NCBI RefSeq assembly: GCF_003704095.1
Contig: NW_020847187.1
Coordinates: 62,001 to 126,000 of the forward strand
DNA from: Pocillopora damicornis
Taxonomy: Eukaryota
Length of the DNA stretch: 64,000 nucleotides
Direction: 5' to 3'
Shown here: in pieces, positions 4,150-58,561 of the stretch
How positions within the stretch are numbered: the stretch's first letter is position 1
Layout of the letters: each line of letters starts with the position of its first letter
Translations under genes and position numbers: made by a program
The notes under the pieces: model-generated
What the model was told of the DNA's origin: nothing
Databases searched by the model: none
The model's input: only the letters and a program-made list of their open reading frames with translations

Positions 4150-4180
<31 letters not shown>

Positions 4181-4182
4181 CC

Positions 4183-4213
<31 letters not shown>

Positions 4214-19329: not shown

Positions 19330-19362
<33 letters not shown>

Positions 19363-22300
19363 GCAGCGGGAGAGTATAACAGGGTAATTTAGTATTATCA
19401 ACTGAGTTGCTAACGTAAATTGGCCACTTTAAGGAGTTTTAAAGCTGAAGTTTCGAGCATTAGCCCTTCGTCAGAGCGAAATACGTCACTCCTATTAAAA
19501 CGTGAGATTGAGTGAAATGAACCCTTGGAAGTGTCGCTGTTTGAGATGAGCTGCCGGGGAATCGGAAATCGCTAGGTGAAAGCCGTTGAGAAGACAACTA
19601 GGTACGGACCACTTGAGTGGAAGCCACAGGACAGCTGATCAGTTCGCCGGGTGAACCAGTGAAATATCATCATTGATGTGCAGAGAAGCTATTCCCGTGA
19701 AGTTAGCAGGGCACTGAAATATCTTGCAGGAGACTCTAGTAAATCAGTAGCTCTCCAGATGCAGAAGTCTATCTTGACCAGTTCACTTCATTTCGCTTGG
19801 TCGGTCAAGATTCTATGCTGAACAGTGGTTTCACATCTTAAATTCATATATACAGACAATATCAGGAACCTTTTTAGTGCTCTAGTCACAAGGGGCTTTA
19901 TCCCAATTTCATAAGCAAGAATTTTATAAGGTGTACAATATCTTAACAATTAAGGTTTTATTTTATTTTTAGAGTATAAGTTTAGGTCTTCATCATAGGG
20001 TTGGCTACCGCTCACGCCGCCCAACAACCGTGCTTTTGATCTTGGCATCCAGAGGGTTTTTACTGCAATAATGATTATAATAATGGGAATAAAACCCAGG
20101 CCACAGCGGAGGGAGGCAAGTAGTCTCACCACTGCACCATTCCCTCACCTACCATTTTTTCATGCAATTCCTAATTGTCCTTAGTTTTTTTGCAAAAGGT
20201 CAAAATTACTGCGCCTGGGGGACAGGTATATGTGTTCACATGTGACTGTGATTTGAAGCAAGGAGCTTTGTCGAAAGAACTATTTCCTTCTGGACAGGGA
20301 TCAAAACAAGGCGGTAAATATACAAATTATTTTATTTGTTCTCTTCAGCACCACTTCGGTGCTTTCTCCATTTTCATTTTGTTGTTTCATCCCTATTAGT
20401 ATCTATTATTCATCGTACTCTTGTATTTGGTTATCGTTTTCGTCCTGTGCAGCTGTGGTTGGTGGTTTTGTTGGCGTTTTTAAGGACTCTTCCCACTGCT
20501 GGCCGTTTAATGATGCTCAAGCCGACTCATCCCCTGATTTAGTAGGAAACTTCCCAGCTCAGCTTAAGGTACAATGATGGATTAACAGCTTACTTGAAGG
20601 GTGGGATTTGATGTTCAGTATTGTGCCAATTTCGCCTTATCGTGTAAACGAAACCATAGTAATTGCAAAAGCCAATCAGAGCGAAAGATTTTATCCTAAG
20701 GAGCCAATGACAACAAAAAGTAACAATAAACCTGCTTAACGCCTGGGAAAACGTGAGTCACCGAGTCATGATTTGCATTTGAATGGTTGTGAGATTGGCT
20801 ACGTCAAGTATTTGTAGACTATTCGAAAAAGTGCAGTAAAGTTAAACCATTGTGGTCGTGAATGACGACGACTTCAAAAACGAATATTGTTGTGTAGGAA
20901 AGGCATGCACTAATTTATGGTGGTAATTTATGGATCATTTATTATGTTTTGAAGATCCAACCCAGTTTTCACTCTAGATGGTTATAAGCTTGAATTTGTG
21001 TTCACGATATTAATTTCTCTACTGCCACAATGTATACATTAAAATATTTCAAAACCTATCAAAAGTTAGTCATCATGTGCTGTTCGTTATTTCAGTGGTA
21101 TTCTCTCCTTTCATAGGACGGGGCTAGAATAGTAGATTCCGCGGCAAGAGGAAAAGTAGCCTCCACACTTGAACAAAACAGTTGGATTGATCTGGGAAAC
21201 TTTAAGGGTGAGGTTATCACCTGCATGTAATAATGTTGAGCAACACATGCTAAATGCTGTCATAAAGTTGATTCCACTCTTTGGCAATATGCTTCAAATG
21301 TGATTCCTTTATACCATGAAAAACAAGAAATCTGACCATTTTACCAACTTTTCCAAAACTATGATGGTTTTTGTGGGTTTCGCTCTTTGCATGTCTTACA
21401 AACTATCAGTTTGGGAATGGCTGATTACTGAGATAGTGAGGAAAACGTTTTAGAAACCGATTGATTGAATTCAAGATAGTTACATGTGCACAATTTAAGT
21501 CGAAAGTTTTAGATATATTAGGGTGTAAATTGGTAATCAGTTGTTTACGTCACTCAGGGATTCCCCTTTGAATATCTGAAATTTTGAAGTGTTTGATTTC
21601 CTTTTATGGAGACATTGAATAATACAGACCAACTGGCTGATGATACTTTACTTCAGAGCAAAGCTTATACTTCTATATTTGAAATTTGTTCTCAAAGGAA
21701 GATGCATCAGTGACCCATCTTTATGTGCTAATGGAGTTACCATGATTTTCTGGGCAAGAATCGAACAAGCAGCCCTCCTAACCGATCAGCAGCTTCCGAA
21801 ATACGTATTATCCAGTGGAGGGTCAGATCACAGATCCCGAGGATTCTCTTTTTTCCATCAGAACTATCAGTTTGTACTGAGAGTGTCGGCGGCTGAGAAA
21901 GAATGGAGAATTGAGATACCACAAGGACAAATACCGCTAAATTCTTGGTTTTCATTCGCATTTACCTGGAAAAATGGTACTTTCTTAAAATCAAAACCAT
22001 TTTAATATTTAGATTTAATTATTTCTCCGACTAATTAAATAAATGTTGTACAAAATGGATCTAGTTCCGAAGTCCTCTATTTTTTCTTATTTCCTTAATG
22101 AATTACAGAGATTTCTTTTTATGTGGTTCTAAGATGGTGTTGCATGGATCGTTTAAATTTCTGACCTTAAGAATGCAATAAAATTGACCACGAAATAGGT
22201 TATTATCATCGATATCAACAGCAAATTAGGCTGGATTCGAGCCAAATTGAAACCATTGAATTTCTAAAACGAATACAAACACTTCATGTTGGTTGTTAGC

Positions 22301-25300
22301 ATGCTGAGTGCATTCTATAAATTCCTACCGTAAATTTTTTTCTTGTTTTCTTGTAGAGGAGGGACTAAAGTATTACATCAACGGAACAGAGGCTGGTATT
22401 AAACAGATGAGCGAAAGCTTGGGTCAGATAAGAGGAAACGAATTCAACGACTTAAGGATAAGCAAACCCAACCATAACAATCTAGTGCAGGAGATGTTAC
22501 CAATGAAGTTTGACCAGTTTGCTACTTGGAACAGAATTTTGCAACCAGACGAGGTTAACCAGGCTTTTAACCAGGGTATGAAGGGCACACCCGACATTTC
22601 ATCAAAGTTTTTAAATTGTTTTTCGACCATAAAGTGATACTTTCCCATATGATCCTACTTTAGAGATTCCTCATATTACCCTTGTAATAGCTTCCACGAG
22701 TTCAGTATTAATTGAGTAGATCGGTTGATTAGTTTGGGTGTTAAAACAAATTCTTGCTCTCTTAAGAGGAACTGGGATATTGATTTGACTCAACTGGTGT
22801 CACTAGCCCATTCCATCTGTGTTACACACCTCACTGGATGCAACTTAATTGAGTTCGTTTAGCCAGACCTAAAGCATTCACAACGTCCAATGAGAACAAA
22901 TTGCTGGAAGGGAGGGAAATGGCGCTGAGTGGTGACCGAATCAATTTTTCGTTTTCTGTTTGTTTTTATTAATTGAGAGTGCGCCAAAAGCTGTGTTACA
23001 CCAATGAAAACGCAGTGCAATCTAAGATACTTTACACACTGTATGGGTAAAAAGGAACTACCCTAAACTTATAAAAAGCCCAGGGAGAAAATAGCAGGGT
23101 TCAACACGTCAAACTTATTAGCAACACCCTACTTTTATTTGATTGGCAGGTGGTGGGCTTCCTGACAAAGAAGGAAAACCCAACCCTCAAGGTTAGTACA
23201 TTCGTTTAATTGTAATGAACGTACTTGTTGATCGTGTTCTGTTATCGTCTGAAGAGAGTAATCCTGAATGAAAAATACTGTTTCTAAAGAAAGTATGCTG
23301 TTTGTATCACGTGACATTTAGCTTGTGAGCCGAACCCCTGCCTGAATGGAGGAACGTGTAAGACTGATGTTGACTCTCCTGAAGGCTACCGCTGTATTTG
23401 TACTCCGCAATACGCAGGAGTGAAATGCGAAAGTAAGAATTATAATTAATACCGATTTAAATGTTAATTTCTTCACCGAACTGTACGAGTTGATCTTCTG
23501 TCAATTAGACTTATGCCGATAGCTTAATTACTTTTTGTCGATCACTCTAAAAAGTTTTTGTTATTCTTTATTGAAACAGTCAAGGAAGATCAACAGCCAC
23601 AGACTACGCAGGGTAAGAACTCAAAAAGAATTATTTTAATTATAATAATTTAAATATAATTATGGTACAATTCAAATATGTAAGCATTTGAAAGTAGAGG
23701 GGAATCTCTAACGATAGAGTCTCGTAGAATTTTATTTACAAAGCCTAACGGCTTTCCTATCACCAATGTTATCCTGAAGCCCTATTGACATTATCGACAT
23801 TGCTGGCAACCACGTCACTCTTGGACCTAATGTTTTTCACTGTATTTCAGTCCTTTTATTTTGCTGTTTACCCTTGAATGCATTAAGTACAAAGCTTTGG
23901 GCTTGAAAATTGACCAAGTTCACCTTCATTAAAGTAAAAGTTAATTAACAATCAATCGCAGCAGGTACCACTATTGCATCTAGCACTGGTGCTACTGCTA
24001 GCGGGGCATCCACCACTGCAAGCCCCACCAGCAGTACTTTTACCACCGGAGCATCTGGAGGAACCACACGCAAAACAGGCAGCACCGCCAAATCTACAAG
24101 TGGTTCTTCTACACCACTTACAGGCACCGGTTCAAAAGGCACCACTGCAAAACCTACAGGCAGCACTGCAGGAGCAACAGGGGGAACCACACGCAAAGCA
24201 GGTACCACTGCGAAATCTACAAGTGGTGCCTCTACTAGTAGAACTTCTAGCACTGGATCATCTGGAGGAACCACTCGCAAAGCAGGCACCACTGCAAAAC
24301 CTACAAGCGGTGCCTCTACTAGTAGTGCTTCTACCCCTGGATCATCTGGAGGAACCACTCGCAAAGCAGGCACCTCTGCAAAACCTACAAGTGGTACTTC
24401 TATCACAGGAGCAACCGCTACTGCAACACCCACCATTTCATCCGCTGCCTCAACAGGTGCCACAGGCCCATCTGCTGGATCTACAACAGGTAAATCCACT
24501 TCTACCACAGATAAACCAATTATGGATATTCGTCGTTCAACGTCCCTCACAACAAACAAAGGAAATCTCACTGACTGTAGCGACGACTTTGAACGTTTCC
24601 AGAAAAACGCATGGACTCGACTTCAATCTTACAACAAGAACCTGACTCAAGACAAAATGCTATATTCAGAATAAGACAAACATGTAATTTACATGATTGA
24701 AATTGACAGTTTTAACCCCTTAACTTCCGTGAGTGACCAAGAAAGAATTTCTTTGGACATGCAATATTAACAGACAAGTGATAAAAATAAAGAAAAATAT
24801 CAATTAGGGGATTATTAGTTGATCCAAAACCAAATTCTCCTAAATAAGCTTAAGAATTATATGGCAGAAAGTAAGGAGAATTACGAATGAGATCTGAGTG
24901 AAAGGGTCAATCAGTTATGAGATTAGATGGAAACACAAGAGTAGAGGCTGACATCTCTCTTTGACGCCAACAGTTTATGTTAGTGTGACATAATGACAAC
25001 TACTCTAATGGAAACATTATATTACAGGCTGCCGTAGGCTCTTTTTCAGGTGCTGTCTTATGATTCGCATCCGTTGTAAGCAAAGAAATATTATGGTGTT
25101 ATTTTGTTTTTTCGCTGTAACATTTTAATTACTTAAATTAACCATATCGAATTCACAATCAAATAAATAAACGAATGAATAATTAGATGAATTCATGAAG
25201 ATTAACGTATGAATAAAGAAATATATAAATAAACTAGATATTAAAACCCGGTTATTTTACGGAGTTAGAGAACATTCTGAAATCGAACATTGTTACTTTT

Positions 25301-25318
25301 ATATCAGTTGGTTCTTAT

Positions 25319-25369
<51 letters not shown>

Positions 25370-28300
25370 ATTTATTTTACTCTCTTTTATTTTGTGTTAT
25401 ACAGGGTGCCCGTTGATACCAGTCTTGTGACTGAAGGGGTCACCCTGTTTAAATATCAATTATTATTGTTATAAAAGAAACTTTGCAAGGAAACGAATGT
25501 TGTAATGCTGAGTTGATGGCACATCTTATTAGAACTTACAATATAACTCCTGATGCTTTTTGTTTCTTACTATGCAACAGCACCTCCAACAACAGCTCCT
25601 CCGTCAACAGCTACTCCGACTGGAACACAAAGTCCACCACCAGATATAGGTGAATAGTTTGGTTTTATCCTTATTTTAGCAATATACAGAGGTCATTAAC
25701 TTATTATGATATTAAAGCCATTTTTTTTGCTCATGGGTGGCCCCCACAGGCACTGACACAGTTGCTTTTCAGCCAAAGTTCAAGGATAAATTGTGTAATC
25801 GTTGCGGATAATTCTAAAATAATTATTGTTGGTATGTTGTTATGTTCTCTGAATCCTGGAACGTTTTTTCTAACGCTGCACATGCAGATTACTGTTTTTT
25901 TCAAAGCAAAAACATTAGATGAGGATTGTTTCCCCTCCAGCTGAGCTTTTAACAAACTGGATGCCTTCCTTGTAATCTAGAGGCAGTTCTGCTCTTTATG
26001 AGGAATTAGAGTTCGTAAAAAAAAGCTCTCTGAACTTAACCTTATTTATTCTTTTATCTGTAATAGTGCAATTTTTACTTTTTGCAAATCAGTAACAAGT
26101 CAGTGACAGATGTATATGGTCTCACAAGCGAAATGACAGAAATTTGAATTTATTTTCAGAGCAACTCAAGAAGGATGTAGAGAAGCTTGTTAACGTCTTC
26201 CGAAATCTCCACCAAGCCTCAGATGTGTCAGATAGTCAGGAACTGAACCAATTAGCCAGCGAATGGGCAGAAAATCTCGCAGCTTCTGGCGAAGAAAAGA
26301 TTGATCCTGACTCAGAATTTGGGCAACTGGTATGCAGCCATCAGGCAGAAGCTGATATTGCCAAGGCATGCGCAGTCAAGTGGTATAGTGCCATCAGGTT
26401 CTTTGACTGGGCTGATCCTAAGCTCACTGTAAAGACGTCTCCGTTCACACAGCTGGTATGGCAAAGTACCACAAGCATCGGAGTTGGTATCGCTAAAGCT
26501 AAGGGAAATGCCAAGAGAGAGAATGTCGCGGGCAAATATTATATTGCAGTGTTTTTAAGTCCTGCACAGAGTGATGACAAGGTTAAAGAAAACGTACTTC
26601 CTGCGGCTGGTAGGTGATTCATGTGCTCTTACGTTGCGCTTAATGAAGATTCGAATTTCATTATCCAGTATATTGTACACCAGGAGAGGCCTATTTACAA
26701 AACATATGTATGTAATAGCAATCTGTAATCTTCTGATCCTTCACTTGTTTGTGTTTTTCTCCAGGAATCTCTACACCCTCACCAGATGGTAAGTATACGT
26801 GAAGGTAAATGGAAAAAATAGTTTCAGAAAATAACCAGTCTGTCAAACTTACTTGATACGTAAATGCTACGTAGGTGTACACACAAACCTAATCTTTCCA
26901 TCGCCAAACGTACCTCCACAATGGCCCACGTACCTGTATTGTTTCGGTATAATTCAAACAACAGAAAGAACACCATACTCCTACAAGTTCCACAACTTTA
27001 TTAAACAACGTGAAATATTCTTACTAAGGTGCGATTCCTGTAGGCGATACAGTAATTATCCTTGATAAAATAACTTAGGCCCACTACAAATTATAAATTA
27101 GCTCACCACTGCCACAATCTGATAGTTGTGTCCAAATCTCCTTGAAATGAATAATCTTCCACAATAGCTCTCTCTCGGTATCGCTCTCCGGACAATCAGT
27201 CACACCAGACAACAACAACTAGTACCACACAACTGAGTCCTTCTATACACTTACACAAAGTAGTCTAGAATCTGGAAGCTTAAAAGACAACTATTTTCGA
27301 AATATTAAATCATGACTACATAACCCAATAGAATATTCTGGAAAGTTCTATGGTATGCCAGACAATAGAAAGCTCTTTTATGTATGTCAGCATAACTAGG
27401 CATTCTAGAAATTTCTAGAAACTTATTTTCACAATCAATATCTATAAAAACATTCCTACCTATTCGACTACTTACCATCCTACCTAACCTTTTAACTACC
27501 TACATATTAACCTATTTCCCCACTAATCAGATTCCCTGCCTTCTTGCTTACCAAGTTACCTTCGTACCTACTTACCTACCTATTTATCAAATTTCTTTCT
27601 TCTCCTAGCTAGTGATAAATTAATTTACCTGCCATTTGTTAGTTTGCTTGTTTTGTTTGGTGAGCCATTTATTTTATGTCCTAATCTATTCGTCTTTCTC
27701 ATTCTTCGTTTATCAAGCTGCCTGTCCTGAAGGCTACTTTAAAATACCGATGGGTGTTACTCGATCATGTTTCACCGTCCGTAACACACCAGTGACCTGG
27801 GATGACGCTCTGCTTGGTTGTGCTCTTGATAACGGTACCCTGGCTTCGCTTGAGAGCAGAGAGGAAGCTGACCTGGTTGTTAGTTTAATTGCAAGTAAGC
27901 TAACATCCTACTTTGTTCGAAACTCAAATGTAATAAACTCGAGATAGCCATTCACTAAATTAAACACCCTTTTGAAAAAGAGCCCCTCCCATCGGCCAAA
28001 ATCTAAGATAAAAAACCTCCCTGACTCGAGTCAAGTGTCTCCTCCCTCCTCACAGTTTTATGGACGAAAACTAGAACACAGTAAAGGATAGGTAATGCGA
28101 ACGATTAAGAGCTTTGAGTTCCCCTTCCACGATGAAAATTGGCACTTACGATGCTACAGGTTTTGAAGTGGAGGTGCAATACGTTACATCGAGGCCGTGG
28201 TAATAGGTAAAAGTTCCACGAACGAAATTACTTGCTTTTAAGCTATTACCCAACCATTTGTAGTTCAATGCCCTCGAGGTAGTGCCACTACCATTTATTA

Positions 28301-31300
28301 GTGATTGCTGGTCCACACATAGTGCTGGTTGATGAATGAAAGCTTAACAAACGTCCTCTGTTTTCTTGCACGATTTTATAAAGAAGCCAACCTTACAGAA
28401 GCTTGGATTGGACTCCATGATCGCTCAACCGAGGGCCGTTACGTTTGGGTCTCAGGATCGCAAATTCCATTCTCCGAGTGGCTGCCCGGTGAACCTGATG
28501 GAAATGAAGGACAGAGCTGTATCGTGCAAGCCAAAGGGGAATATGGACCTGGATGGGCTGACAGACAATGTTCCGATAGAAAGGCTTTTGTCTGCGAGGT
28601 TCCCGCTCCTGGTAAGAAACAATGATAATACAAAGCTTAAATCATATCTTTCAGTCATTCTCTAATCAACAAGTTACATTGGGTGTAAAGCTTTAATTGA
28701 CGTAAATGGCAATGACACTCGGTTCTTTATGGCCAAAGGACACCGATACATTTTCGTTGATCGTGGAATTATTATGTGATAACTATGGGACCTGTAAAGT
28801 CTGTCGAGACGCCGGTTATAGGATCACAACTCACGATAGCCTTAAAACAATATTCACGTTACTTAAATACATTTAACAGCATAAGTACTCATATTCAATA
28901 TACATTCATGCAAATCATGCTGATCAATTACCACAACAAAATCCTGCTCAAAGACACAACATAACAGGAATTACCAAAGAATGGGCGACCATGCTTACGT
29001 TTGCACATGTATTAGCATACAAAATATACTTATCATGATGTCAGGATGAAATCAACGACAGGTTCTTGTTTAAAGTAAGCCTGATTGATTGGTCGGCTAT
29101 TCTCTTTTGTGTTATTGTTAACTTCTCAATGCAGGTCATACCTTTTACAAGTTAACGTTTAACCTGACGGAACCACAAACACAGTCGTCCCAGTACACCT
29201 CCTATTCTCAGTACTCCCAGTCCTTTTATCCTGGGTCATATTACCCAACCGTGTGTGCACCTGTCATTCAGAATGTGAATGATATTCTCAGGGATACGGT
29301 AAGCTACTGTATGCGTAAATACTTTGTGAAAAAAGGTAGAATGAGGCGGTTATGACGTGGAATTGAATTTTTAAGGAAAAGGGTCACCTAAGGATTATGA
29401 TATACAATGGAATTGTAAAAAAAAAAAAAATGAAAGACTAAGTTGTATGCTTTTAGAAAAATTTTTAGAGAATAGAAAATCGTGACCAGTCTGTAATTGT
29501 TATGGTAATATAATTCTTAACCTGGAAAAAATCACGTTCTCCAACTCTTGAGGCCATAAAGCCACACCATCGCATCGGCTACAATTCATTCATTATTAAT
29601 TGCTCCATGTCAAGTTTTCGTTCAGGTATGCATAATGATTTTTCCTTCATAAACCCGAAGTGATTGTATTTGCACATATAGTGATCAGTTGCAAAGCAGA
29701 CTTGAGAACTTAAACAAAATAAATAACGCATGCGCAATGGTACTCTGCTCTCTTAAACCATTTGACCCCAAAGAGTCTAATTTATCCATACAATATCACC
29801 TGAATCGAACATTAAGTTCACAAGCCGAATAAAGGAAATGATCACCGACTTAAGTTCTCGATTGTTCCACAAATTCTCCTTGTCAGCACCTTAAGAAATG
29901 CAAAGAGAACAGTATGGAGAATATTCATGCTGATGTTATGGTGTACAAGGGTTAATCATCGATAATATATCAAATGATATATGGTCCTTCTCTTACTGAA
30001 GGAAATTTTGAAGGCAAATAATTAGAATTCAGGCGAAAAAACTTGGCTTTTATTTTAGAGGACTCTTTCCTCAATTCCAGTGTGAAAATAGTTAAGAAAG
30101 TTGAGATATCGTGCTCAGTATCGGCCGAACAATCTAAGGAACCGATGATTGAAGAATTGTACTCTTTTTCCCTCGCTCGTGGCAAATGTCAATCACATTC
30201 TTACTTGTCTTACTACTTAGAAGTTTAAGCCCAAGTCTCAAAATAAGAATACGAAAGCTGAAACTATTTTTGTTTTAACATTTTGTTGATTTGTTAACTC
30301 TTTGACAGATCGCTCGTTACTTCCAAGCAAAGAACCTTTCAGTTCAGCCAATTGTGAACACAATCAGGTAAATGAATCATCTACGTACTGAATAATTGAA
30401 TTATTTTTCTTTTGATTTAAGAGTTGTCTATTTTCTCCCTTTTTCTTTAGGTGCTTGCCAGACGGCAAATCAATTGTTGAGGTTATCTTGAGGTTAGGTC
30501 CGGAGGCCAGTCCTGACTCGATTGATTCACTTAAGACCAGTATTAATGAGAATGATGGAGAACTGGAACTAGAAAATGGAGTATCTGCTAAACTTATCAA
30601 TGTGACAATTCTCCTGCCAGGTAAGTAGACCATCAAGCTCTATGCAAGTGGGAAACAAACGTTTATCTTAATTGGAATGTGGTGGTATTGACTAAATTAA
30701 TTATGACGTAGAACGAAGTAATTGTGAGCATTCCAAAATTGCAGGATACTGATGGTGGATTGGTAAAATGGAACACAGCGCTCAGTTGTCTTCTTCAAGT
30801 TAACCCAACTATATCTAAACCAGCCTTTAACTTCATATTTGTATTTTGTTTTCACTCAGTTTGGGAGTATTATCATTGCATTACGCCCAAGAAACATTCA
30901 GAGCGTTTAAGGTTTAGAGCCACTTCATGACAATAATTAATTAGGCAGATGAGAAGAGGTTTGATATCCGCTGCTGGCCTTTTGCCGTAAATTATATGCT
31001 CATTTTCATTACAATAGCAAGAGAAATCCACGGTAGGCTGCAACTCCTTAATTCTCACGGTTTGCTGAGTGAGCAAGGGTCTCTTGATCAAATGTGACCT
31101 CTAATAAGACCTCGTAAAATGTTATTGTTCATTTGTGCCACAGGCGCTGACCTCGTAAAATTTTTTTGTTCATTTTTACCACAGGCGCGTCACTTTGCCC
31201 AAACCAATGTGTGAGCAGCACCTGTCAGCCAGGTTGTGACCCGACTTGCTGCGCCCAGGCTCCAGCTCCCGTAGCAGCAGTAGGAGTAGCAGCAGGAGCA

Positions 31301-31489
31301 GCAGCAGCGGGAACAGCAGCCGTTCAGTATCCATCACCAGCTTCTTACCAACCTGAACCAATCTACCCCCAAAGAAACCCATACCAGTGCCCCATTGCTT
31401 GCACCAATAATGTTAACTTCTGCCCATCTTACTGCGCGCCATATTGTTGTAACAAAAGACGATCGCGAGTAAGAATACATAAGTTTTAA
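16995..31489 (+). CDS. Gene B: secreted NOWA-like multidomain protein SP-pro(RERR)-PLAT-LamG-EGF-Thr/Ser/Gly mucin-CAP-CTLD-SEA-CRD-CRD-basic tail (~1177 aa, 22 coding exons)
   Basis: Exons: 16995-17046, 17813-17866; 18528-18672, 19088-19190, 20199-20313 (PLAT); 20453-20568, 21117-21207, 21698-21976, 22357-22575 (LamG); 23150-23191; 23322-23432 (EGF CEPNPCLNGGTC..YRCIC..YAGVKCE); 23580-23612, 23962-24489, 25581-25649 (mucin-like); 26160-26609 (CAP); 26765-26788; 27718-27894, 28384-28611 (CTLD); 29135-29298, 30309-30367, 30451-30620 (SEA-like); 31185-31489 (two CRDs). The total of 3534 nt is divisible by 3 with no internal stops. Confidence 0.85.
19310..19478 (-). repeat. Short dispersed repeat with a minimal hammerhead motif (copy 2)
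   Basis: Minus strand GCT-CTGACGA-AGGGC-taat-GCTC-GAAA-CTTC-AGC at 19443-19477. Confidence 0.7.
19530..19950 (+). mobile_element. 3' remnant of a restriction-like-endonuclease (REL) non-LTR retrotransposon in an intron of gene B
   Basis: Degenerate translation VSLFEMSCRGIGNR*VKAVEKTTRYGPLEW...IIDVQRSYSREVSRAL...MQKSIL resembles the E(L/M)SCP..N...K..KY..L motif of REL endonucleases. Confidence 0.55.
24055..24395 (+). repeat. Coding tandem repeat in the mucin-like exon of gene B (GGTTRKAGTTAK[PS]TSG unit, 4 copies, spacing 120/84/84 nt)
   Basis: Recurrent ggaggaaccac[at]cgcaaa[ag]cagg near 24058, 24178, 24262 and 24346. Confidence 0.85.
24712..24910. mobile_element. ~200-bp MITE-like element
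   Basis: Terminal inverted repeats ttaacccctttaact ... agtgaaagggtcaa with TTAA-like ends. Confidence 0.55.
25320..25368. repeat. (TA)n microsatellite
   Basis: Directly visible. Confidence 0.95.
26160..26609 (+). CDS. Gene B CAP/SCP (GAPR-1-like) domain exon
   Basis: VNVFRNLH, LNQLASEWAENLA, WYSAIRFFDW, FTQLVWQSTTSIGVGIA, ENVLP. Confidence 0.9.
26935..27433. mobile_element. Dispersed repeat, solo-LTR-like (copy 2)
   Basis: Diverged homolog of 1582-2041 in the same orientation. Confidence 0.6.
27718..28611 (+). CDS. Gene B C-type lectin domain (2 exons)
   Basis: CPEGY..SCF..TWDDA...C...GTLAS; WIGLHDRSTEGRYVW; WLPGEPD; SC..WADRQC..AFVCE. Confidence 0.92.
29752..29955. mobile_element. ~200-bp MITE-like element related to 24712-24910
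   Basis: ttaaaccatttgacccc ... gtgtacaagggttaa termini; internal caaattctcc and aataaag blocks shared with 24712-24910. Confidence 0.5.
31185..31489 (+). CDS. Gene B terminal exon with two minicollagen-type cysteine-rich domains and a basic end
   Basis: CPNQCVSSTCQPGCDPTCC and CPIACTNNVNFCPSYCAPYCC followed by NKRRSRVRIHKF*. Confidence 0.85.
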
Positions 31490-32687: not shown

Positions 32688-33034
32688 TCAAGTCAACTCT
32701 TTGTTCTTTTGTAGCAGGTGTTTTCGACACGCACGTGTCTCTTTCAAGATATTTCTTCTTGCGTCGTCGTCGTCATTTTTCGCATCTTTCATTTTCCTCG
32801 AGTTCAAATCGTCGTGAACATTTTCCAGCTCTGTCTTCAAACGTTCCATACGAGATCTAAGATCGTCGACTTGCGCCTTGAAATCCGATTTCACAACTCT
32901 AATTCTGGACTCCAGAGTGGTTAACTTTTCCTCAATCTGTGTGGTGGTGTTGAAACATTTCGATGGACTTTCTTCCCTCACGTCACGCATCTTTCTAGTG
33001 TCATCTTTGTTTGAGTCCATTCCTGTTTCGTTCA
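32688..33034 (-). CDS. Possible terminal exon of an unknown coiled-coil protein
   Basis: 115-aa ORF with a heptad-like helix (IEEKLTTLESRIRVVKSDFKAQVDDLRSRMERLKTELENV), preceded by an acceptor-like ttctattcggtaacag; no upstream exon identified. Confidence 0.4.
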
Positions 33035-33533
33035 CTGTTACCGAATAGAAATTGATATTGTATACAAATATACAAATAAGTCACGGTAAAACATTCCCGT
33101 CGAGTCGTACAGAAAAAATGCAAATGAGATTACTTCGAGGTTAACCACAACTGATGAGCCTCGATGTTATGTGGTGGCTCCAAAGGAATGAGATTTAATC
33201 TTATAATTCATTTATACGGGGAATTCAAATGTAAAGTTCCAGAGAAAGACCTGTACATATCACTAAGAAATCTGACATGCAAATTCGCACAATAGAAAAG
33301 AATTGACCAGGGAGTAATCACAAAAGGAGTGAGTTTTTTTTGCTGAAAAACAAATCTCACAACCAGGAAAATCACGCAACCAGATAATGGGAAACCAGCA
33401 TCAAAAAGTAAACATCTTTTTCGCCCTAATTTATGCAGATATAACGGCGATGATTTCAGTTGGAACCAGTTCTCGTTGAACCATGAATTAAGTAATTTTT
33501 CGCATGATTATTTCAAACTCTTCATTATTTACC

Positions 33534-34176
33534 ATGAGGGGTGCGGTAGCAGTGATATTTCTTTCCTGTGTCATTCTTACACTTTTAGGTAAGTAGCAGA
33601 AACTTTTATCTTTGTGTCGCTTTCCCTACCAAGTCCATGTCAAGCCACAGCAAGACTGAAATTTTTCCTTTGTAACATATCTTCCCGCAACCGAATAGGG
33701 CTTGAGTTCACTGCGGATGGTACCGTGATTTTAAGACAAAAAGTAAGGATGTTAACTGAAATCCAGTTTTCAGTATTACCTCAACATCTAAGTCTGTGAT
33801 TTTACTTTTAAATTACACTCGTTATCAAGTCATCCTTTATCAGATATAATCACATGTTCATGTTTACCTTAACAAGGTTGCTCAAGCTACAAGTTTTATG
33901 GGAAACGGAAGTTAGGACTGATTGCATGGAAAATACCCGGCATTCGTCCGATTTCTGCTATTTATTCTTTATTACTTTGTCGCAGAGTTGTTTCATGGGG
34001 ATTCCACTGAACAGCCAACAAACAGAAGAAGAAGAACAATCTATGACGAAGAAGGATTCCCGGATGATGAATATGACGGTGACCATGGTGACGAAGATGA
34101 ATATTACGGAGCCGGTGACGAGGAGGACATCCGTTTTAGGAGGCAGCAGCACCAGCGAAGATATCAGAGACAATAA
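33534..34176 (+). CDS. Gene C: small secreted acidic prepropeptide (81 aa, 2 exons)
   Basis: Exon 33534-33588 (MRGAVAVIFLSCVILTLL, G|gtaag) plus exon 33986-34176 (cgcag|, phase 1): ELFHGDSTEQPTNRRRR-TIYDEEGFPDDEYDGDHGDEDEYYGAGDEEDI-RFRR-QQHQRRYQRQ*. Confidence 0.75.
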
Positions 34177-36402
34177 CAAGACGACAATGAATTCTATTGA
34201 ATTGAACAGTGCATCATGTAGATACGTTGTTTTGATATGAGTGATATCGGCCCCAAAGGCCAACAAACATTCTGTACAAGAATTGTTTTCCAGGTAAATG
34301 TTAAGTTCTTTTGTTTTTGATCAATACCACTCGGAGATGCAAAGCAAGTAAATTTGTCAACCAACTTGTAAAGCAGCTGTCTGTTATGCTGATTTAATTT
34401 TTAAAGAGGTTTAAACTTGGCTAGACGGAGTACGAAGATAATAACGAAACAACAACAACCACACTGAACAGGATCTGCTACCACAAACTTTTGGGTAACA
34501 AGAAGAAGGAAATCAACAATGTAAACAACAGTAAAAATAATAAAAAAGAATTTTCACATGATATCTTCTAGCCCTGATTTACATTGGAATCATTGTGATC
34601 TTCCGGAAGCTTCTCAAGCATCGTTTACAAGGATTAGAATTTTGAGTGCCAAACTTCTCTTTTTTTGGTATCCTTTCCGCAAAACAAATGACGGAGAGCT
34701 GGAAACAGGCTTTCTCCGTATTATTTCCGCAAGAATGAGTTGTGAAATTGTGATGCGGATAGCTACAGTTATCTGCTATTTAGATGATAGATTTAACCTG
34801 ATATTAAAACAAATTGAAACAGCACGCTATCGGTGATTAGTACCAAAAGACGCCGTATTCTGGGAAGCAATTATGGGCCACACCTAGTGTTCTAAAAATA
34901 AGGGGGCTAATAAAATTTCCAGAACTGTATCATACAAAGATCGACTAGGAGGTTATTAAAGAGCGTTGTTACTTAAAAGTGATACATTTTATCAAACTGA
35001 TGAGCATAAAAAATTTATCGGTGATTTTATTAACAAGCATCTAAAAACAATTTGAGGAGGTTTTCACAACTTAACTTTAAAGGAAACAAAAGTCTAAGGG
35101 TTTGCATGACCAGAGAAATAATTTAAAAATAGAGTTAAGACTTTAATTGCCATCCACGCCCACAAATTTGTTTATTGGAATGAGGATAAATGTTGTGCCA
35201 AAGGCAGATGCCCTATGTTTGGAAAACAAAGCGGGTAAAAAGCTGGTTGCAAATTAAAAAATACTTTTGATCCTTCATATCGATCTGCTAACAGTAATGG
35301 AATGAACTGTGGATGCTAAATCCAAAAAATAACTGAACGAACCAATTTATTTCGATTGTACAAGAAATTTAGGACTATTTTTTTTTTTTGCATTCGATCT
35401 CCATTACACCTAAAAGGATATATTTTCTCGTGATATAACTTGTTTACTCTTGGATGAAGACTCCTGGAACTGTTTTTGATAACTAAACTACATTATTTAT
35501 TCATAAAATACTCCGTGGTCGAGACCATCAGTGTGAACCAAGATGAAAGATAAAGACAAGAAATAATCCACGTGAAAAACGAACACAAGCTAGGATTTCT
35601 CAACTTAATTGTTGATGCTGTTTCAAAACAGGGTAGGCGTCCATTTGGTAATAATTTCATTCAGTTTTCTTCGCTCTCTTTTGTGAACAGGGTAAGTAAA
35701 ATAACAACTGACTCAAAATACAATCATTTGTAGTCTCGTTTTCCTAAAATAGTACCTCCACAAATAACTTTAAATATGTGACAATGTGATTCAGAAATCC
35801 TTAAGGTTGAGATGGAAAATTTTGTCCGACGACCAGAATTTTTGTTTTAAATTGATTGAAGTAGATATTATTGAATAAGCTACTACAATTACCCATCACA
35901 ACCCAATCTGATTCAAAACAAGCCTGGAAGTGGTTTAGAAGCCATTTCATCTTTTGGGCTAACCCAAGCTGGGAACTCTTCACTAAAACTATGATGAAGG
36001 ACCGCTACGTTCCGTTTTAGTGTAAGTTATCTCAACAACGTCAATTGTGTACTTCATCGACAAAAATGAGCTACGGTGATATAGTTATTTTGACGAAGGT
36101 TCACATTAGATTATTTCCTAAACTAACAACCCATTTTCCTTGTATAATTTTTATATCATGATATAAAAAAGGTTAGATTTTCATGGTTGGCAAACAAAAG
36201 CTATATTTCCGTTTGGGTGTCATTCACCTGCTCCACATTCACGGCATTGACGAAAACCTTATCAATAACAGATTCGACTAATATGTTTTTACCTTTATTG
36301 CAGTAACAATAACACTTCAATAGCAAATGCTCTTAATATCACACGAGAGCTGACTAACTTACAACCTTTTTCTTCTATATAAGAATAAATTTGGTTGACG
36401 CA

Positions 36403-39400
36403 ATGAAGCTACTGTTCTTTTGTCTTCTCTCTACAAGCCTGGTGTGTACAAGTGTAAAAGGTGCGTTTATGTTAATTTTTCTTTCAAGGGCTTTCATTGA
36501 AATGGAACGAGAATTTCACTCATTTGAAACGTAAAATTGGAGAAGAAGCATGTATTTTTAGCATTCTGTTTAGCATTCATAGTGTATTTAAATCATGAAC
36601 TTTCACGTTGTTACTGAAGAACTGAGAATTCTGAATTTTATTGTTACTTTCTTTTATTCTAGCTACTCTACAGAGAGATGTCATCACATACATGAACGTG
36701 TTTCGGCATTTGCACGCGGCTGGACCACTGTTGGTTGATGATGTCATCCAGAAAAACGCACAAAATGCGGCCGTGTTGTTCATGAAAGCCAAAAGCAAAG
36801 ACAATGTTCCAATTTACAGATACAGTGCCAACTTCTGCAAGTATAAGGGATCTGTAGTGGATCTGGACAAAACGTGTGTTACATCATGGTACGTGTCGAT
36901 GAAGTATTACGTTTGGTGTCATCCAAAAGCCGAGGGGCAAGCTCTTCCATTCGTGAACATGATTTGGAAAGCCAGCACTAAAGCAGGAGTAGGGATAGCA
37001 AAAGACACAGATGAAACATATTACGTGGTCGTGTATATTGCGCTTCAGGATGAAAATAATGTGTTGAGAAACGTGCCACCGGTAAAAAGTAAGTATTTCT
37101 TATTGCTTTTCGTAACTTCCAAGCTTTAAAAGCAGATACTCGATCTCATTTGATAATGTAAAACATCTTCGCTGGCCTTTCCTGAGAAATGTTTGCTATT
37201 CCGAAAGAAAATTCTAGAGCAATTTGTAATTATTAGTCCAGTTAGTGAAGAAAATAACGTTTCATAGGAAAGGTAAGGAAATTGCACAAAATGGAAAAGG
37301 GCCTGAGAGGGGAGATGAAAGGAACAGCTATTTGTTATTTGCTTAAATTGATACACATCGTTGATATTATAATAACGCAAACCCGTAATTATGGTTGTCT
37401 CTCACTTAGAGAGGTAAAGAAATTTCACTCTAATGCATATCAGTTCTGACATTTTTTTAAAACTATCATTTGCAGTCGTAATGGAGGCAAGCCCATTAGG
37501 TAAGATCCTGCCATGGTTGTCAACAACAACAAAAACGAAAAAGCAACTTTATTTATGTTTTCTTGACTTGACTTGACTTGATGAAATTCTAAATTATTTT
37601 GCCTACATTTACAGCAAAATGCCCTGCAGGTTACTCAAGATATGAAACGTCTTGTTTCAAATATGAGACGACTTCAGTAACCTGGGACGAAGCAGTGACA
37701 CGCTGCGCAAGAGAAAATGCGACTTTAGCCTCTATCAGAAATGCTAAAGAGGAAGAATTTGTGAGAGGGTTGCAAAAGAAAACTGGGTCGGGAATGGAGA
37801 CTTGGATTGGTATGAAACATTTACCATATAAGGAGTTGAATTCATACCTGTAGTTTGTTTGATTATTCTAGCCATGTTTCTTTTAAAAGAAATTTCGGAA
37901 AATAGCTGATTCAAACAATAATTACGAGTGAAAACTAGTTATCAAAGCATCCTCTTCATTATTCTAACGATGTCTAATATGCTATCCGCATAAAAAAAAA
38001 GACGGAACCTTTCCAACTTAACATGTTTTGAAACATTAATTCATATTCCGTAGTTCAGGTAGATTATATATTATAAGTCCCCCTTCAAATTTTTAACTTC
38101 ATTTCTAGAACTAGACCCTAAGCGCGTATTGGAAAAGGAGGAAGGATATGATAGAGTATATTTAATTCACTGTTCCTACTAGAGGATAGGATAAATTATG
38201 GCAGATCGACACTCAACAGGTTTACACGATAGTTTACACGAAGGTAGCTTTAAATGGTTTGACGGACTGAAGTTCAAAAGTCACGTGTGTGTTCCGGTTC
38301 ATGCCGATGGTGGAAACTTGGAAAATTGTGTGGCATGGAGCATTCGCAAACCCAAAGGATGCTGGGACGATAGACCATGCAACGAAAAAAGACCTTTTAC
38401 ATGTAGGATTCCCGTTGAAGGTAGAGTAAACTTCAATATACAGCTCTAGAGTGGATCAAGAGGGGGAGGGGGGAGGGGGTCTTTACTCTAATTTTTGTAG
38501 CATTTATTTTTTTCTGTTCCTGTTTTCTTTGGTGACTTTTGTAAATTTAGGTGTTGACGGTATAGGTATGAAGTAAGGCTTCACTTTCACGTCCACTTTT
38601 TGGCGCTGTCATGATATGCTATCTGCATCTCACCTGTTATAGGAGTGAGCAAAGTCACATGAATTCGTTGAAGTACAAATATTAACTTCATTTTAATTAC
38701 GCCGTAAAATGTCTGGTTTTCATTTCGAGTTTTTATTGATCGACACACAAGTTGATTTAAATCATAGTTAAAATTTACAGAAAAACGGAGATAGTATTAA
38801 TTAAACATCATTCTTCTGTCGCTATCATCGCGTTAAAGTTTTAAGGGCGTAGCTCTTAACCGATTAAACTTTAGGTGAGACACCTCGAAGAATTACGAGG
38901 CTTAGAAAATTTTAAAGAACCATAGCTTATACCAGATGTCACTCTGATAAAAACATACTCTCGTTTCCTGGCTTAAGAGCCAAGGAAACCCATATGCATT
39001 ATCAAATAACGCAAGGGATTTTTTTTGTTAATTGTTTGAACAGGCAAATCAACTTACAGAACTGAGGTCCTGTTCAAAAAATTCCGCTGGAGAGCGAACT
39101 ATAAAGATAAAAATTCCAAGGCCTACAGAGATCTGGTAAATGGAATCAAAATAACGGTATGGAAATGGTTTAGTAACTTTACACATATAAATCACGAAAC
39201 TCTCTGATTAAACCATGGTTACAATATATTGTTCATAATCCTAACACTGGTTAAGTCTTAACTCTCTATTTCAAACATGGATATAATTTTCTTTGCCATT
39301 GTGTCCAGTTAGATGCTTGGATATCAAACTATACTTGAAAGATTTTTCAGATATTTAATGTGAGAAACCTCAACCTCTTGCCTAAGACCTAAGATTCGTG

Positions 39401-41945
39401 GGGTTGACGCCGGTAAACCAGAGGTTAGCATTTCAATTATTTCTGCTTTCAATTTTTAAGTTCAAAGAAATCTTCACACGAATGTCAGGGAAAAAGAAAG
39501 GTGGATTCAGAAAAGTTAAAGTTAAAGGTGTCAGGTGAGTCAATATCCTGTCTTTCGCTTACTCTGTGTTCCTTATTTGTATCACTGAGTGACAAGTCTG
39601 ATTTTAACTGCAAAAAAATAATTTACATGTATGTTGCTGTCTTGTTCTGAATTTTCTTTCTTCCTCTCACTTTAGGGCAATATCCTTCAAGGGAAGGTAA
39701 GTTCGTGTTTATATTGTAAATAAATTACAAATGTACCCACTTACATGGATTAAGTTTTGTCTGTCCCTTTTCCTTTCATGGATCACTGATTTTATGCGTT
39801 GGCTGTCGTAAATTAAAAACTGCACGACTCGATGTAAAAATTTATAGCATTTGCAGTGCAAGGTACTTCTGTACTAATCATGATACCAATTAATTATGGA
39901 TGAAAATATTATCCAGTAAAATGTTTCAATTATCTCCCATCAGACCTGCAGGCTTAGGAATTACGGTTTCAATCAAGTTTAGATCCTTCACCCCAGACCC
40001 CACTCTCCGGTTTCAGAAATTTCTGCGTCCTTCGGAAAAACTTCTTAGTATGACCATTGACAGACCAGGTGAGACTTGATTACAAAAAGAAATCACTCCA
40101 GTTTGAATAAGTTCTATTATTTCATTGTTGTTATCACTATTAGTAGTGTCACTATTGTGAATATTATCAATAGAGTTATGAATGAGAATTCTCAATTTGA
40201 TGTTCAGGGCAAAATGCAAATTTCTATGTCCTTCTTTTCGACATCATTTCAGTAATTATTCTTTTAATATCATAATTTTTCTTTGCTCATTAGATTACTT
40301 TATTTAACTGTCAATAGGCCATTGTTGTGGACACTTTTTGCGCAACCAAAATTTACTGTTTTCCTCTCTCACTTTGCAGACAAAGCGGAAGGACATACAG
40401 GTAATATAATCTCATAATTGCTGAAAAGCATTAAAAATGCACCGATTCTCACCTTTTTTATTGTCTTTTTTGACAAGTCACGTATCTTTCCTTAAGTGTA
40501 ATCAGTTAGACTTGGAAGCCATGATCACAGCGTTCCTGAAAATCGAACACAGTGTGCTTTGGTTATAGATACAATTTCTTTTCACGCTGAACACTTTACA
40601 ATTCGAATGTCTTGTTTTGATATTCCGTTTTTTTTAAGGCAAAGCAGGAGACTACTGTTATGGTTCGTGTAATAACCATGGAAGATGCACTTCCTCCCTT
40701 CACCCTTATAATTATCACCTTGGGCTCCCTGCACCGGCATACTCTGTGTACTACCCAGGGGTGCAGACCGTGACGGGCACCACTGACCCATACCCTGCCA
40801 GCTGTCCAATGACATGCAGTCAGTATCCAACATTAGACTGCTACATGCAGTGCAACGACGAATGTTGTGATAGCAGGGAAGGCAAAAGGAATTGGAAGGC
40901 GAAGGCCATCGAAGATCTAATGGAGAAGCGATTCCAAAATCAGGATCAACTTACTAGTGATGAAAGAAATCACACAAAGTTTGGATCTAGTTATTCAGAG
41001 GACAAAGATTCAGATTTGCAGCATAACAATGCTGAGTCACATGATAAAGGGGATGTTTCAAAAAATGTTATCAAGAGTCTCAAGAAAAAGATAAAAAGTC
41101 TTCAAAGGCTCTTGAAGAAAAAATATCAACCGGATAAGTTCGATTATTTCGACGACATTAACGATTCTACTGAACCAAAAGATGACCATGTTATCAATTC
41201 TCTCAACAAAAAGGAACAGTCACATGATAATGATGAGGAAAACGAACTAGACGCAATTGCACACGATCTCATTGATGATAAAAATGAGCCAAGAGGCGTG
41301 CCTGTAGGCAACACACTCAATAGGCCCGAGCTAGCAGAGAAAAATATCACAAACAAGGAAATCACGTACAATCATGAAGAGAGCTTTGGTCAAAAGGAAA
41401 AGTCCAAGGGCAGTCTACAAGACGACGATGGCAATGAAGACATCAGCCTTGAAAATCAAGGCGAAAAAATTGGCATTCAAGGGGACGGCACAGGCAATCC
41501 AGGTGACAGCATTGAAACAAAAGAAAATAGAACTGGACAGCATGATAGTAAAAGTGGCTTTACCAAAACTTATAAAACATCACATCTCGAATATCAAAAC
41601 GATTACATGGTGAAAGAAAGAGAAAATGCCGTGAAAACGATTCAACACGCAAATATCTCAGTTGAAGAAGAACCTATTAACAAAGGGAAGACAGCCAAGC
41701 AACACGACCCCATTAATGTCTACGAACCTGGAAATAGAATGATTGAGGAGAGCACTGATGAGGAAGGAGAAGGTGACGATTCTGAAAACGAACCACCAGC
41801 TGAACAAGGACTTTTGAGTTTGCAAGATTCTGCATTAGACCCAACTGAAGAAATATTGAATGAAGAGGGAATTGATGATGTTGGTAACTTTGGCAGGAAG
41901 AGAAACTTTATTCACAGGACAAAGTCAAGCCACTCTGATAAATAA
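36403..41945 (+). CDS. Gene D: secreted NOWA-like protein SP-CAP-CTLD-SEA-half CRD-CRD-GKR-acidic tail (~854 aa, 11 coding exons)
   Basis: Exons: 36403-36460 (MKLLFFCLLSTSLVCTSVK); 36663-37088 (CAP); 37476-37499; 37615-37809, 38220-38420 (CTLD); 39044-39156, 39461-39534, 39676-39696, 39944-40068 (SEA, e.g. WRANYKDKNSKAYRDLVNGI); 40380-40400; 40639-41945 (CRD CPMTCSQYPTLDCYMQCNDECC plus a ~350-aa D/E/N/K-rich tail). Total 2565 nt, in frame. Confidence 0.83.
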
Positions 41946-43068: not shown

Positions 43069-44467
43069 AGGTGTATTTGTTCACGTGTCGCTATTTAGAG
43101 CACCATGGTTTGTTCTTATTGGTGCGTTATGGCGTGCTTTCCGCTTTGTTACTGACCGTCTGTTATGCTTTTTGGTAGTATAGGCATCCATGCTTCGGAA
43201 ATTTCGATTCCGTTACCCTTATTGGTATTATTAGGATGAAGTCTTATGGGGATGGGTTCTTTCACCCTACATGTATACCAATAAGGTCTTAATGGTATCT
43301 CAGTCATGATAAATAAACTTAACCTGTTCCCAAACAGGAACGTGTCCCGTTCCATTGGTGTGTTCGGAACCGCTAAATTTTAATCGTTTATGTTCTTTAA
43401 TTCTCTCCTACATCGCTCTCCTTATTTCCCCATATTCACACGGGATCTTTGTAAGCAACGCCGTCCCGTTTCGCTGACTCAATGGGATCATAAGGCCGCA
43501 CTACGTGTGACCAAAGCGTCTTGTCGGATATAAACACAGTGCGTATGCCTGTGGGGTATTAACGTTATCTCAGCTTTGTGTATGCCAGGGAGGCCGTATA
43601 GATCCTAGTTGGCAGATTATGACCAGCTCTGATTTTGCTGTATATATTTTCCTACAGATTGCCACTTCGTTACAGGTTGAGACGCTCATCAGTGAGTTTT
43701 TGGGTCTCTGTTGAGAATTAGGCACGGACCTGTTTGTGTCAATATCCAAAACTACGCTTACACGACCTTTGTCGGCTAGTAAGATCATGATAGATTCATC
43801 TTGTTTAAGATCTTTAAGGGTGTTTTGTATTTCTTTCGTGATGTTGGGCATAGGTGGTATTGTTTTTTACAGAAAACTGTTTAGAGTTCCTCCTGTAGTT
43901 TCCGCTTTCTCGTGGACAAGTTTTGTAATAGCTGATTCGACTTTAATAACTATTTCAGTGGTAGGGATGTTAGGTGGCGATACTTCGAAATTTAACCCTT
44001 TCTCTAGTAAAGACATCTCAGCATCGCTGATGGACGGTGAAGATAAGTTATTAACCCATTTATCACAGTCAAAGCTAGGTGTTATGTGAACATTAGTTGC
44101 TAAAGAAAAAATCTCTGGTTCTCTTGCACAAGTATTAGAAGCTTGCGTCGTTGCGGTTCTTTAGCGTCATCAAATTAAACAATCCATGTGTAACAACATA
44201 TTTTCAGGTATGTCACTAGCGTCAGCTGCCGACATAGGGGTTGTTATACTCCAGGCAGTAGGTTCAGTTCTCTGTTCGCGTCTCCCCTGGCTATCCGCGT
44301 AGGTCGTATTCTTTCCCTTAAAAATCTCAGAGAAGCTAGTTGGTCATCTTTGCGAGTGTCTTTGGTTGGAACCGGAGGCTGGACTCCGAAGCTCTCTTGG
44401 AACTATGTGACACTTGATTTACCTTGTCAGAGAGTTGAGATGGTTCGTATAGTTTGAACCTTCGACC

Positions 44468-44515
44468 TTGTCGCCTGATGAAGACTAGCAGTATAATAGT
44501 CGAAACGTCGCCATC
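44468..44515 (+). ncRNA. Minimal hammerhead ribozyme motif at the end of the Penelope remnant
   Basis: CTGATGA-A-GACTA-gcagtataa-TAGTC-GAAA-CGTC; stem II is perfect, stem I is weak. Confidence 0.55.
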
Positions 44516-44672
44516 AATACACGATTGATTAACTTGACTTCTACATCGATATCGTGAGACACACGATGAAATGTTCATTTTTTTTATAAAAACCACGATG
44601 AACAACAACATCTATAGTATACAACGCCATAGTTTTTAAAGTAGGAAATCTTAGGTATATGAGCAATTATAT

Positions 44673-58461: not shown

Positions 58462-58561
58462 NNNNNNNNNNNNNNNNNNNNNNNNNNNNNNNNNNNNNNN
58501 NNNNNNNNNNNNNNNNNNNNNNNNNNNNNNNNNNNNNNNNNNNNNNNNNNNNNNNNNNNNN
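58462..58561. other. Assembly gap (100 N)
   Basis: Run of N. Confidence 1.

Follow-up and report, generated by a model that had tools for sequence, protein, structure and literature searches.

A spliced stony-coral gene for an undescribed, predicted secreted acidic prepropeptide lies amid NOWA-like genes

Here, we show that positions 33534-34176 of a 64,000-nucleotide stretch of Pocillopora damicornis DNA (contig NW_020847187.1, positions 62,001 to 126,000 of the forward strand; hereafter the window) are a real spliced stony-coral gene encoding an undescribed 81-residue predicted secreted protein. The gene lies between the first two of four tandem CAP / C-type lectin / six-Cys minicollagen-type CRD genes, which we label NOWA-like by domain architecture and not by database match. 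It represents a new family of small secreted peptides present across the stony corals sampled. Databases conceal it as hypothetical proteins, intron-started fragments and a fused model, and the gene may already figure under other identifiers in atlas marker or skeletal proteome tables. Tentatively, we read the precursor as a predicted secreted, convertase-cut protein that would yield a probably sulfated, cation-binding polyanion of stinging cells, on the basis of synteny, the minicollagen-like layout of the precursor and an upstream POU-like element that is conserved. The gene overturns no known system. Either leading role of its product, as a stinging-capsule component particular to corals or as a short calcium-binding skeleton peptide that is easy to synthesise, would matter to coral biologists.

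Gene structure, transcripts and relatives

The coding sequence lies on the plus strand in two exons. Exon 1 (33534-33588, 55 nt, phase 1, donor GTAAGT) encodes the predicted signal peptide, residues 1-18, and after a 397-nt GT..AG intron (33589-33985) exon 2 (33986-34176, ending in TAA) completes the 81-residue open reading frame. The junction 33588/33986, predicted in an earlier note from the letters alone, is joined in contigs of seven of the eight runs examined (22 are listed), covering six studies, and in all five of the examined runs that are recorded as RNA. The exception is X19, a run of unrecorded kind, which carries 32843-35319 as one unspliced contig of 2477 nt and looks like DNA. 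Transcript contigs extend from about 33445 to 34557, with a 3' UTR (34177-34557, plus strand) that has AATAAA at 34539; contigs end anywhere between 34469 and 34557, from which the true end cannot be fixed. The letter changes listed for four runs number zero in the coding sequence, six in the intron and nine in the 3' UTR.

Where does the protein start? An in-frame ATG upstream would add 10 codons (33504-33533, plus strand) and is used in the Pocillopora and Stylophora models (P0002, P0003). No in-frame ATG stands at this position in the metagenome loci L002, L004, L005 and L006, which nonetheless keep the 55-nt phase-1 exon; 33534 is therefore the likely start, and the extension is probably not ancestral.

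We rejected an artefact or chance open reading frame in view of the splicing, the synteny and a pN far below pS. The peptide gene does not form the first exons of the downstream NOWA-like gene, which has 5' exons and a signal exon of its own, and no joint linking it with either neighbour occurs among the joints listed for the eight runs. The downstream gene is without cover in several runs that contain the peptide gene, and contig depths cannot rank the genes. A truncated paralog of a neighbour was likewise rejected, as the family profile finds no match in the 104 kb around the gene (next best E 1.6). A search of longer proteins returned one relative among 7978, an Oculina patagonica model (ACROYT_G007207, P0020) that carries the complete prepropeptide joined to the end of the first NOWA-like gene. 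We do not take this to mean that the peptide is the C-terminal part of the upstream protein; the model is a probable annotation chimera because it breaks off the last CRD and contains the whole signal peptide internally, and in the window the upstream gene ends in a stop codon and a 3' UTR of its own. The Oculina entry probably needs splitting.

The family comprises 23 distinct relatives (rows), many of them closely related, and the named ones occur in Pocillopora, Stylophora, Oculina and Porites. With the upstream extension, the spliced protein is identical to a hypothetical protein of Pocillopora meandrina and 92% identical to one of Stylophora pistillata, PFX31587.1 (AWC38_SpisGene3606). 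A HMMER search with P0001 against 1.84 billion representatives gave four matches at E <=0.001, of which Porites harrisoni contributed one; a profile search with 758 candidates produced 10 clusters, and 277 candidate stretches yielded five metagenome loci (L002-L006), four of which include exon 1 (L002, L004, L005 and L006), with intron position and phase the same in all four. As the earlier note had asked of a genuine gene, related corals conserve it: the relatives keep two exons, the phase-1 intron and a place among CAP / C-type-lectin / minicollagen-CRD genes. The description as an orphan holds for the genome itself, where the gene is single-copy (one match) and lacks nearby paralogs, but not across corals and metagenomes, where the 23 relatives are found. 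The expectation that annotation would easily miss the gene does not hold as worded: three species already carry it as a hypothetical protein, and one pipeline fused it to its upstream neighbour.

Among the species-named rows (4/23) none falls outside Scleractinia, in searches that are weak for a protein of such short length and biased composition. A tree built from 19 of the 23 rows, from which P0009, P0016, P0018 and P0019 were excluded as near-duplicates, parts Porites plus two other rows from all remaining rows with support 99/96, a division that we take to be the Complex/Robust split of stony corals. In L002-L006, an in-frame ATG lies within the last 10 nt of the intron, ahead of the acceptor, in all five loci and is absent from the window; this ATG explains the signal-less database entries of 60-68 residues. 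The N-termini of P0001, P0005 and P0007-P0019 were taken for start positions set by gene callers, either within the intron or within exon 2, and these entries were excluded from statements on the signal peptide.

Between the window and four of the loci, pN is 0.15-0.17 and pS 0.61-0.68 (uncorrected proportions), and judged by these values (about 0.16 and 0.63) the family is under purifying selection. Regionally, pN is 0.05-0.08 in the signal and 0.06-0.09 in the first basic site plus the first nine core residues; the propeptide has 0.14-0.23, the acidic spacer 0.23-0.31 and the stretch 68-81 has 0.20-0.23. The signal peptide and the C-terminal tail, the latter passed over in the earlier note, are conserved too. 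That note had named two observations that would count against it, the lack of a spliced transcript and the lack of conservation of the reading frame and cleavage sites; the opposite was found in both cases. Searches of Pfam, PDB (best E 0.25) and the ESM Atlas gave no significant match to the precursor, the Pfam ELH matches (best E 0.061, three of 13 members) being insignificant. The Stylophora locus tag, peptide motifs and accessions have zero matches in the full text of open-licence PubMed Central and bioRxiv, and the available portions of PMC13345560 and PMC13581030 mention neither the gene nor NOWA.

Precursor layout and predicted processing

The precursor consists of a signal, a propeptide, four Arg (residues 32-35), a 32-residue acidic stretch, Arg-Phe-Arg-Arg (68-71) and a 10-residue tail. 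Residues 4-18 are hydrophobic (Kyte-Doolittle mean 2.95), and entry into the secretory pathway is very likely on this layout. In the end of the signal region and the short propeptide (33986-34023, plus strand, residues 19-31), E19, L20, F21 and E27 are kept in at least 90% of rows. The earlier note was right that the signal exon shares a phase-1 design with its neighbours: a neighbouring signal exon at 36403-36460 is RNA-confirmed, and those at 47321, 61866 and 16995 are candidates from a scan. Such phase-1 signal exons are common in animal secreted proteins, so that the shared design is not distinctive.

The signal exon of the peptide gene is identical to that of L005 at 17 of 18 positions, compared with only 8 of 19 for the signal exon of the neighbour. 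Such unusual conservation, together with the low pN of the region, could be explained if the signal were an uncleaved anchor, making the product a small type II membrane protein whose acidic and basic outer part is either shed at the first basic site or remains tethered. The residues around 21-26 are also a poor fit to the signal-peptidase -3/-1 rule. We nevertheless consider an anchor highly improbable, as the hydrophobic run of about 15 residues is short for a membrane span, a single Arg is the only basic cytosolic flank, and the phase-1 signal exon is designed as in the secreted neighbours.

The basic sites that the earlier note saw flanking the core are conserved, if not in the form it gave them. 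Site 1 (34024-34035, plus strand), the four Arg at residues 32-35, ends in KR or RR in all 21 rows that include it, and cleavage by a convertase is likely here. Site 2 (34138-34143, plus strand), the Arg pair at residues 70-71, is RR in 22 of 23 rows and a single R in L006; in all 23 rows it is preceded by an aromatic residue and followed by Gln. The strict furin pattern R-x-[KR]-R is present at both sites in the window itself but occurs in only 7/21 rows at site 1 and 3/23 at site 2, so that across the family only basic pairs are kept. A general dibasic convertase thus fits better than furin, the strict form being lineage-specific, and the genome has 17 convertase P-domain matches (exon-level matches, not gene counts).

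Convertases cut C-terminal to a basic site, which a carboxypeptidase then trims. The released acidic product would therefore be residues 36-69 (34036-34137, plus strand), a peptide of 34 residues and not the 32 given earlier, with 16 Asp or Glu, four Tyr and conserved ends on either side of an indel-rich acidic spacer. That site 2 is cut as well and its Arg pair trimmed seems slightly more likely than not. The unmodified monoisotopic masses calculated for this species are 3976.5 for residues 36-69, 5697.4 for 36-81 and 1426.7 for 72-81 (17 lower with pyroglutamate), to which every sulfate would add about 80. An AlphaFold2 model is of low confidence (pLDDT 61.7, pTM 0.24) and leaves the acidic core without regular structure. 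The precursor has one Cys, within the signal region, and none elsewhere.

The Gln/Arg/Tyr tail and the stop codon (34144-34176, plus strand) follow, with 10 residues and a net charge of about +3. Q72, Q73, R76 and R80 are invariant in alignment A4, and elsewhere R80 is replaced in L004 and R77 in P0008. Tails are 10-17 residues long across the rows; a fixed helical face was rejected, as the length of the Gln spacer ranges from 4 to 9 residues among them. Short basic C-terminal tails are also found on two of the neighbours.

Could the tail be the active product? By analogy with preprodamicornin, the precursor of a Pocillopora antimicrobial peptide with which our precursor shares the order of signal, acidic region, dibasic site and cationic C-terminal part (PMC4306955), the acidic stretch may be a neutralising pro-piece for a cationic, likely pyroglutamyl-capped tail. 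Six of the 11 invariant alignment columns fall in residues 70-80, and the invariant Gln after site 2 is compatible with this. However, the two precursors differ in that ours has an extra basic site before the acidic part and, in place of a mature peptide of about 40 residues that is cationic, amidated and has six Cys, a polar C-terminal part of 10 residues here (10-17 across rows) without Cys or amidation signal, with an inner Arg pair and a poly-Gln of variable length. In addition, constraint is stronger on the N-terminal block of the acidic peptide than on residues 68-81 (pN 0.06-0.09 against 0.20-0.23), which speaks against a pro-piece because a disposable pro-piece would not need such constraint. 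We give an active tail only a slim chance.

Acidic core and tyrosine context

The 32 residues between the basic sites include 16 Asp or Glu, four Tyr and five Gly, in line with the half-acidic core described earlier. In all 23 rows the core is 25-36 residues long and 45-60% Asp plus Glu, its acidity being kept while length and order vary, and poly-Asp runs are present in many relatives. The invariant core positions are Y38, F43, P44, D46 and D56, whereas Y48 is Phe in Stylophora.

The four Tyr had all been placed in acidic context, the published setting for sulfation (PMC6272617), which the conserved core Tyr fit. Three of the four in the window precursor indeed have a clean acidic context, but the first, which is invariant, has the poorest, with three Arg within five residues. 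The substrate features of tyrosylprotein sulfotransferase (TPST), namely acids within five residues, a non-basic -1 residue and a secreted protein, are found for these three Tyr and for at least one Tyr in every one of the 23 rows; likewise, each row has at least one Tyr with at least six acids and no basic residue within five positions. A TPST orthologue (L008) is encoded in the genome and matches human TPST1 at E 1.5e-65. Sulfation, which would affect one to three Tyr and take place in the trans-Golgi, is somewhat favoured. In one literature search no cnidarian sulfotyrosine peptide turned up; the two nearest papers, judged by title or abstract start, dealt with other subjects.

A core of this kind could also serve the skeleton. 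Calicoblasts would secrete the peptide into the calcifying space, where its Asp/Glu-rich and possibly sulfated core would bind calcium and guide carbonate formation, in the manner of the coral acid-rich proteins. The peptide has in common with CARP1-6, SAARP and AGARP that it is predicted to be secreted, disordered and Asp/Glu-rich, with a stony-coral range (10.1101/2024.06.04.597398; 10.64898/2026.03.24.713908), and both acid-rich secreted proteins and genes born in Scleractinia are enriched in calicoblasts (PMC8162421). The named relatives occur only in Scleractinia, on both sides of the tree, a range that fits a skeleton gene better than a capsule gene because stinging capsules are pan-cnidarian; absence from anemones may, however, reflect weak searches for a short low-complexity protein. 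The poly-Asp runs and the disordered, 45-60% acidic core are in keeping with a skeletal role as well. On the other hand, the precursor is much smaller than these proteins and has conserved flanking basic sites, conserved Tyr and a basic tail. Its Asp plus Glu content is 19/81 (23%), under the 35% convention for CARP and SAARP (10.64898/2026.03.24.713908), with 16/46 (just 35%) in residues 36-81 and 16/32 in the core, and no database match carries the name CARP or SAARP (a comparison by match names, not by direct sequence pairing). The cnidocyte-type neighbours and the POU-like element also point elsewhere, and we regard a skeletal-matrix peptide as rather unlikely, though as the main rival of the stinging-cell reading.

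Genomic neighbourhood and a possible stinging-capsule role

The upstream NOWA-like neighbour (18512-31489, plus strand; gene 16995-31489 with its candidate signal exon) has a PLAT-LamG-EGF-Thr-rich-CAP-C-type lectin-CRD architecture and its own stop and 3' UTR. The downstream neighbour (35527-41945, plus strand) is NOWA-like with signal, CAP, C-type lectin and CRD, and forms a separate transcript. Head-to-head with the peptide gene lies a transcribed minus-strand open reading frame of 110 residues (32688-33020), of coiled-coil type and without confident family. Oculina keeps the gene order on the upstream side, L005 and L003 on the downstream side, and a minus-strand coiled-coil-type frame is also found upstream of the peptide gene in L004 (about 3864-4283). 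The 5' ends of the two divergent genes are a few hundred bases apart in the window and about 2 kb apart in L004, and a shared promoter is possible.

The four tandem NOWA-like genes occupy 16995-31489, 35527-41945, 47321-57696 and 61866-64000, the last running about 4 kb beyond the window. In this order, their N-terminal additions are PLAT-LamG-EGF-Thr-rich; none; VWA-LamG-EGF; and a short acidic stretch. Nematostella is reported to have four NOWAs, which are cnidocyte-specific (PMC12549020). The peptide precursor has no sequence match to its NOWA-like neighbours, and an ESM Atlas search with a neighbour gave only leads under 0.9.

Two conserved non-coding elements precede the gene on the plus strand. 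A 9-mer at 33391-33399 is exact in L002, L004, L005 and L006, and a POU-like element occupies 33427-33439. The latter is 107 nt from the ATG and may belong to the 5' UTR or to the surroundings of the transcription start. Its 11-mer is exact in three of the four orthologous upstream regions, with one mismatch in the fourth, and is the sole exact copy in the window, where 0.55 are expected for the degenerate form; as background, 42 out of 3000 pieces drawn at random from the window have an 11-mer in common with three of the four regions. No 8-mer is shared with the four loci in the intron or 3' flank. The 11-mer is identical to the final 11 bases of Nematostella POU-IV ChIP motif 3 (PMC8846589); it was picked after the alignment had been seen and mismatches the published POU-IV core consensus at 2 of 11 positions. 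The exact 11-mer is absent at the neighbours' starts. In anthozoans, Pou4 is a marker of both cnidocytes and neurons, whereas Fox and other factors mark calicoblasts (PMC8162421); we treat the element as a lead, not proof, for cnidocyte expression. Further along, a non-coding block upstream of the second NOWA-like gene (35211-35255) has conserved counterparts in L002 and L003. About 35 nt before the contig start of that gene lies an exact POU-IV core 9-mer (35492-35500), a weak observation with 14 such 9-mers in the window.

The acidic peptide, which may resemble granins (acidic, Tyr-sulfated and dibasic), could also be a neurosecretory product, a sulfated acidic peptide stored in dense-core granules of neurons or gland cells and acting as a signal or a granin-like condensing agent. 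The single copy, the dibasic sites, the conserved aromatic residue before site 2 and the conserved ends are compatible with this, and coral neurons express convertases and Pou4 (PMC8162421). With cnidarian neuropeptide preprohormones the precursor shares a signal, KR/RR sites and a Gln after the site with possible pyroglutamate; in contrast to the established ones (PMC7523074), it has no Gly-Arg amidation signal, hence no Gly donor, and no repeats, and gives a single-copy, long and acidic product. Its spacer, moreover, tolerates indels, and the ELH matches are insignificant, so that we consider a neurosecretory product improbable.

The stinging-capsule reading takes its plausibility from indirect evidence, namely the neighbourhood, the precursor layout, the basic tails of two neighbours and the POU-like element. 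NOWA is a protein of the capsule matrix and tube, and capsule pressure depends on polyanion plus cations (PMC10014300). Minicollagen precursors consist of a signal and a propeptide of 4-20 residues ending in KR, and their genes are clustered (PMC7981951); our precursor has this signal and short propeptide ending in a basic pair, and shares with minicollagen and NOWA precursors a basic C-terminal tail and clustering, yet it is without cysteine-rich domain, Gly-X-Y, CAP or lectin domain, or Pfam family. Judged by its sequence, then, the gene appears to behave like a convertase-processed acidic prepropeptide, and it does not have the defining features of the minicollagen/NOWA, amidated neuropeptide or damicornin families.

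In the proposed mechanism, the precursor would enter the secretory pathway, lose signal and propeptide, and, if expressed in cnidocytes together with the NOWA-like neighbours, as seems possible though less than probable, release the 34-residue, likely Tyr-sulfated peptide into the capsule matrix, where it would bind calcium or other cations and perhaps also the lectin domains of the neighbour-encoded proteins. The basic tail might mask part of the charge in transit or aid sorting, and the two conserved hydrophobic ends of the peptide might dock on a partner, with the variable spacer contributing charge only. The peptide cannot join the disulfide network because it has no Cys outside the signal. 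Several points weigh against the cnidocyte reading: capsules already contain poly-gamma-glutamate as polyanion (PMC10014300), Pou4 is also found in neurons, the invariant Tyr has the poorest context, L006 is missing one Arg of site 2, and position does not prove co-expression because the unrelated minus-strand gene shares the interval. Among the functions that the earlier note had offered, capsule matrix has the most indirect evidence on its side, with biomineralisation still in contention, and nothing found here supports a protease-exosite ligand.

A more speculative extension, which we regard as a long shot, is that the sulfotyrosine polyanion mimics a sulfated sugar chain and acts as a peptide ligand of the NOWA-like C-type lectin domains encoded beside it. 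The analogy is with the PSGL-1 N-terminus and the hirudin tail, which also hold several Tyr among Asp/Glu, and through which PSGL-1 binds selectin (PMC6272617). There is no sequence relationship to either, and here the product would be a free short peptide and not part of a receptor or a folded inhibitor; for a hirudin-type exosite ligand the likeness is compositional only (PDB best E 0.25). If true, the peptide would tune capsule-matrix condensation and tube infolding, as a cnidarian counterpart of PSGL-1 / selectin in a ligand-receptor gene cluster kept since the deep stony-coral split.

Finally, some further features of the window deserve mention. A large multi-exon minus-strand gene at 400-11245 encodes PLAT, F5/8 type C, LamG and TSP1, domain types partly common to the cluster. 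A short interspersed repeat family, at about 24700-24900 and 29750-29950, has very high summed depth in four of four runs. The broken open reading frames at 43570-44611 resemble a decayed retroelement, and a 100-base assembly gap (58462-58561) comes shortly after the third NOWA-like gene.
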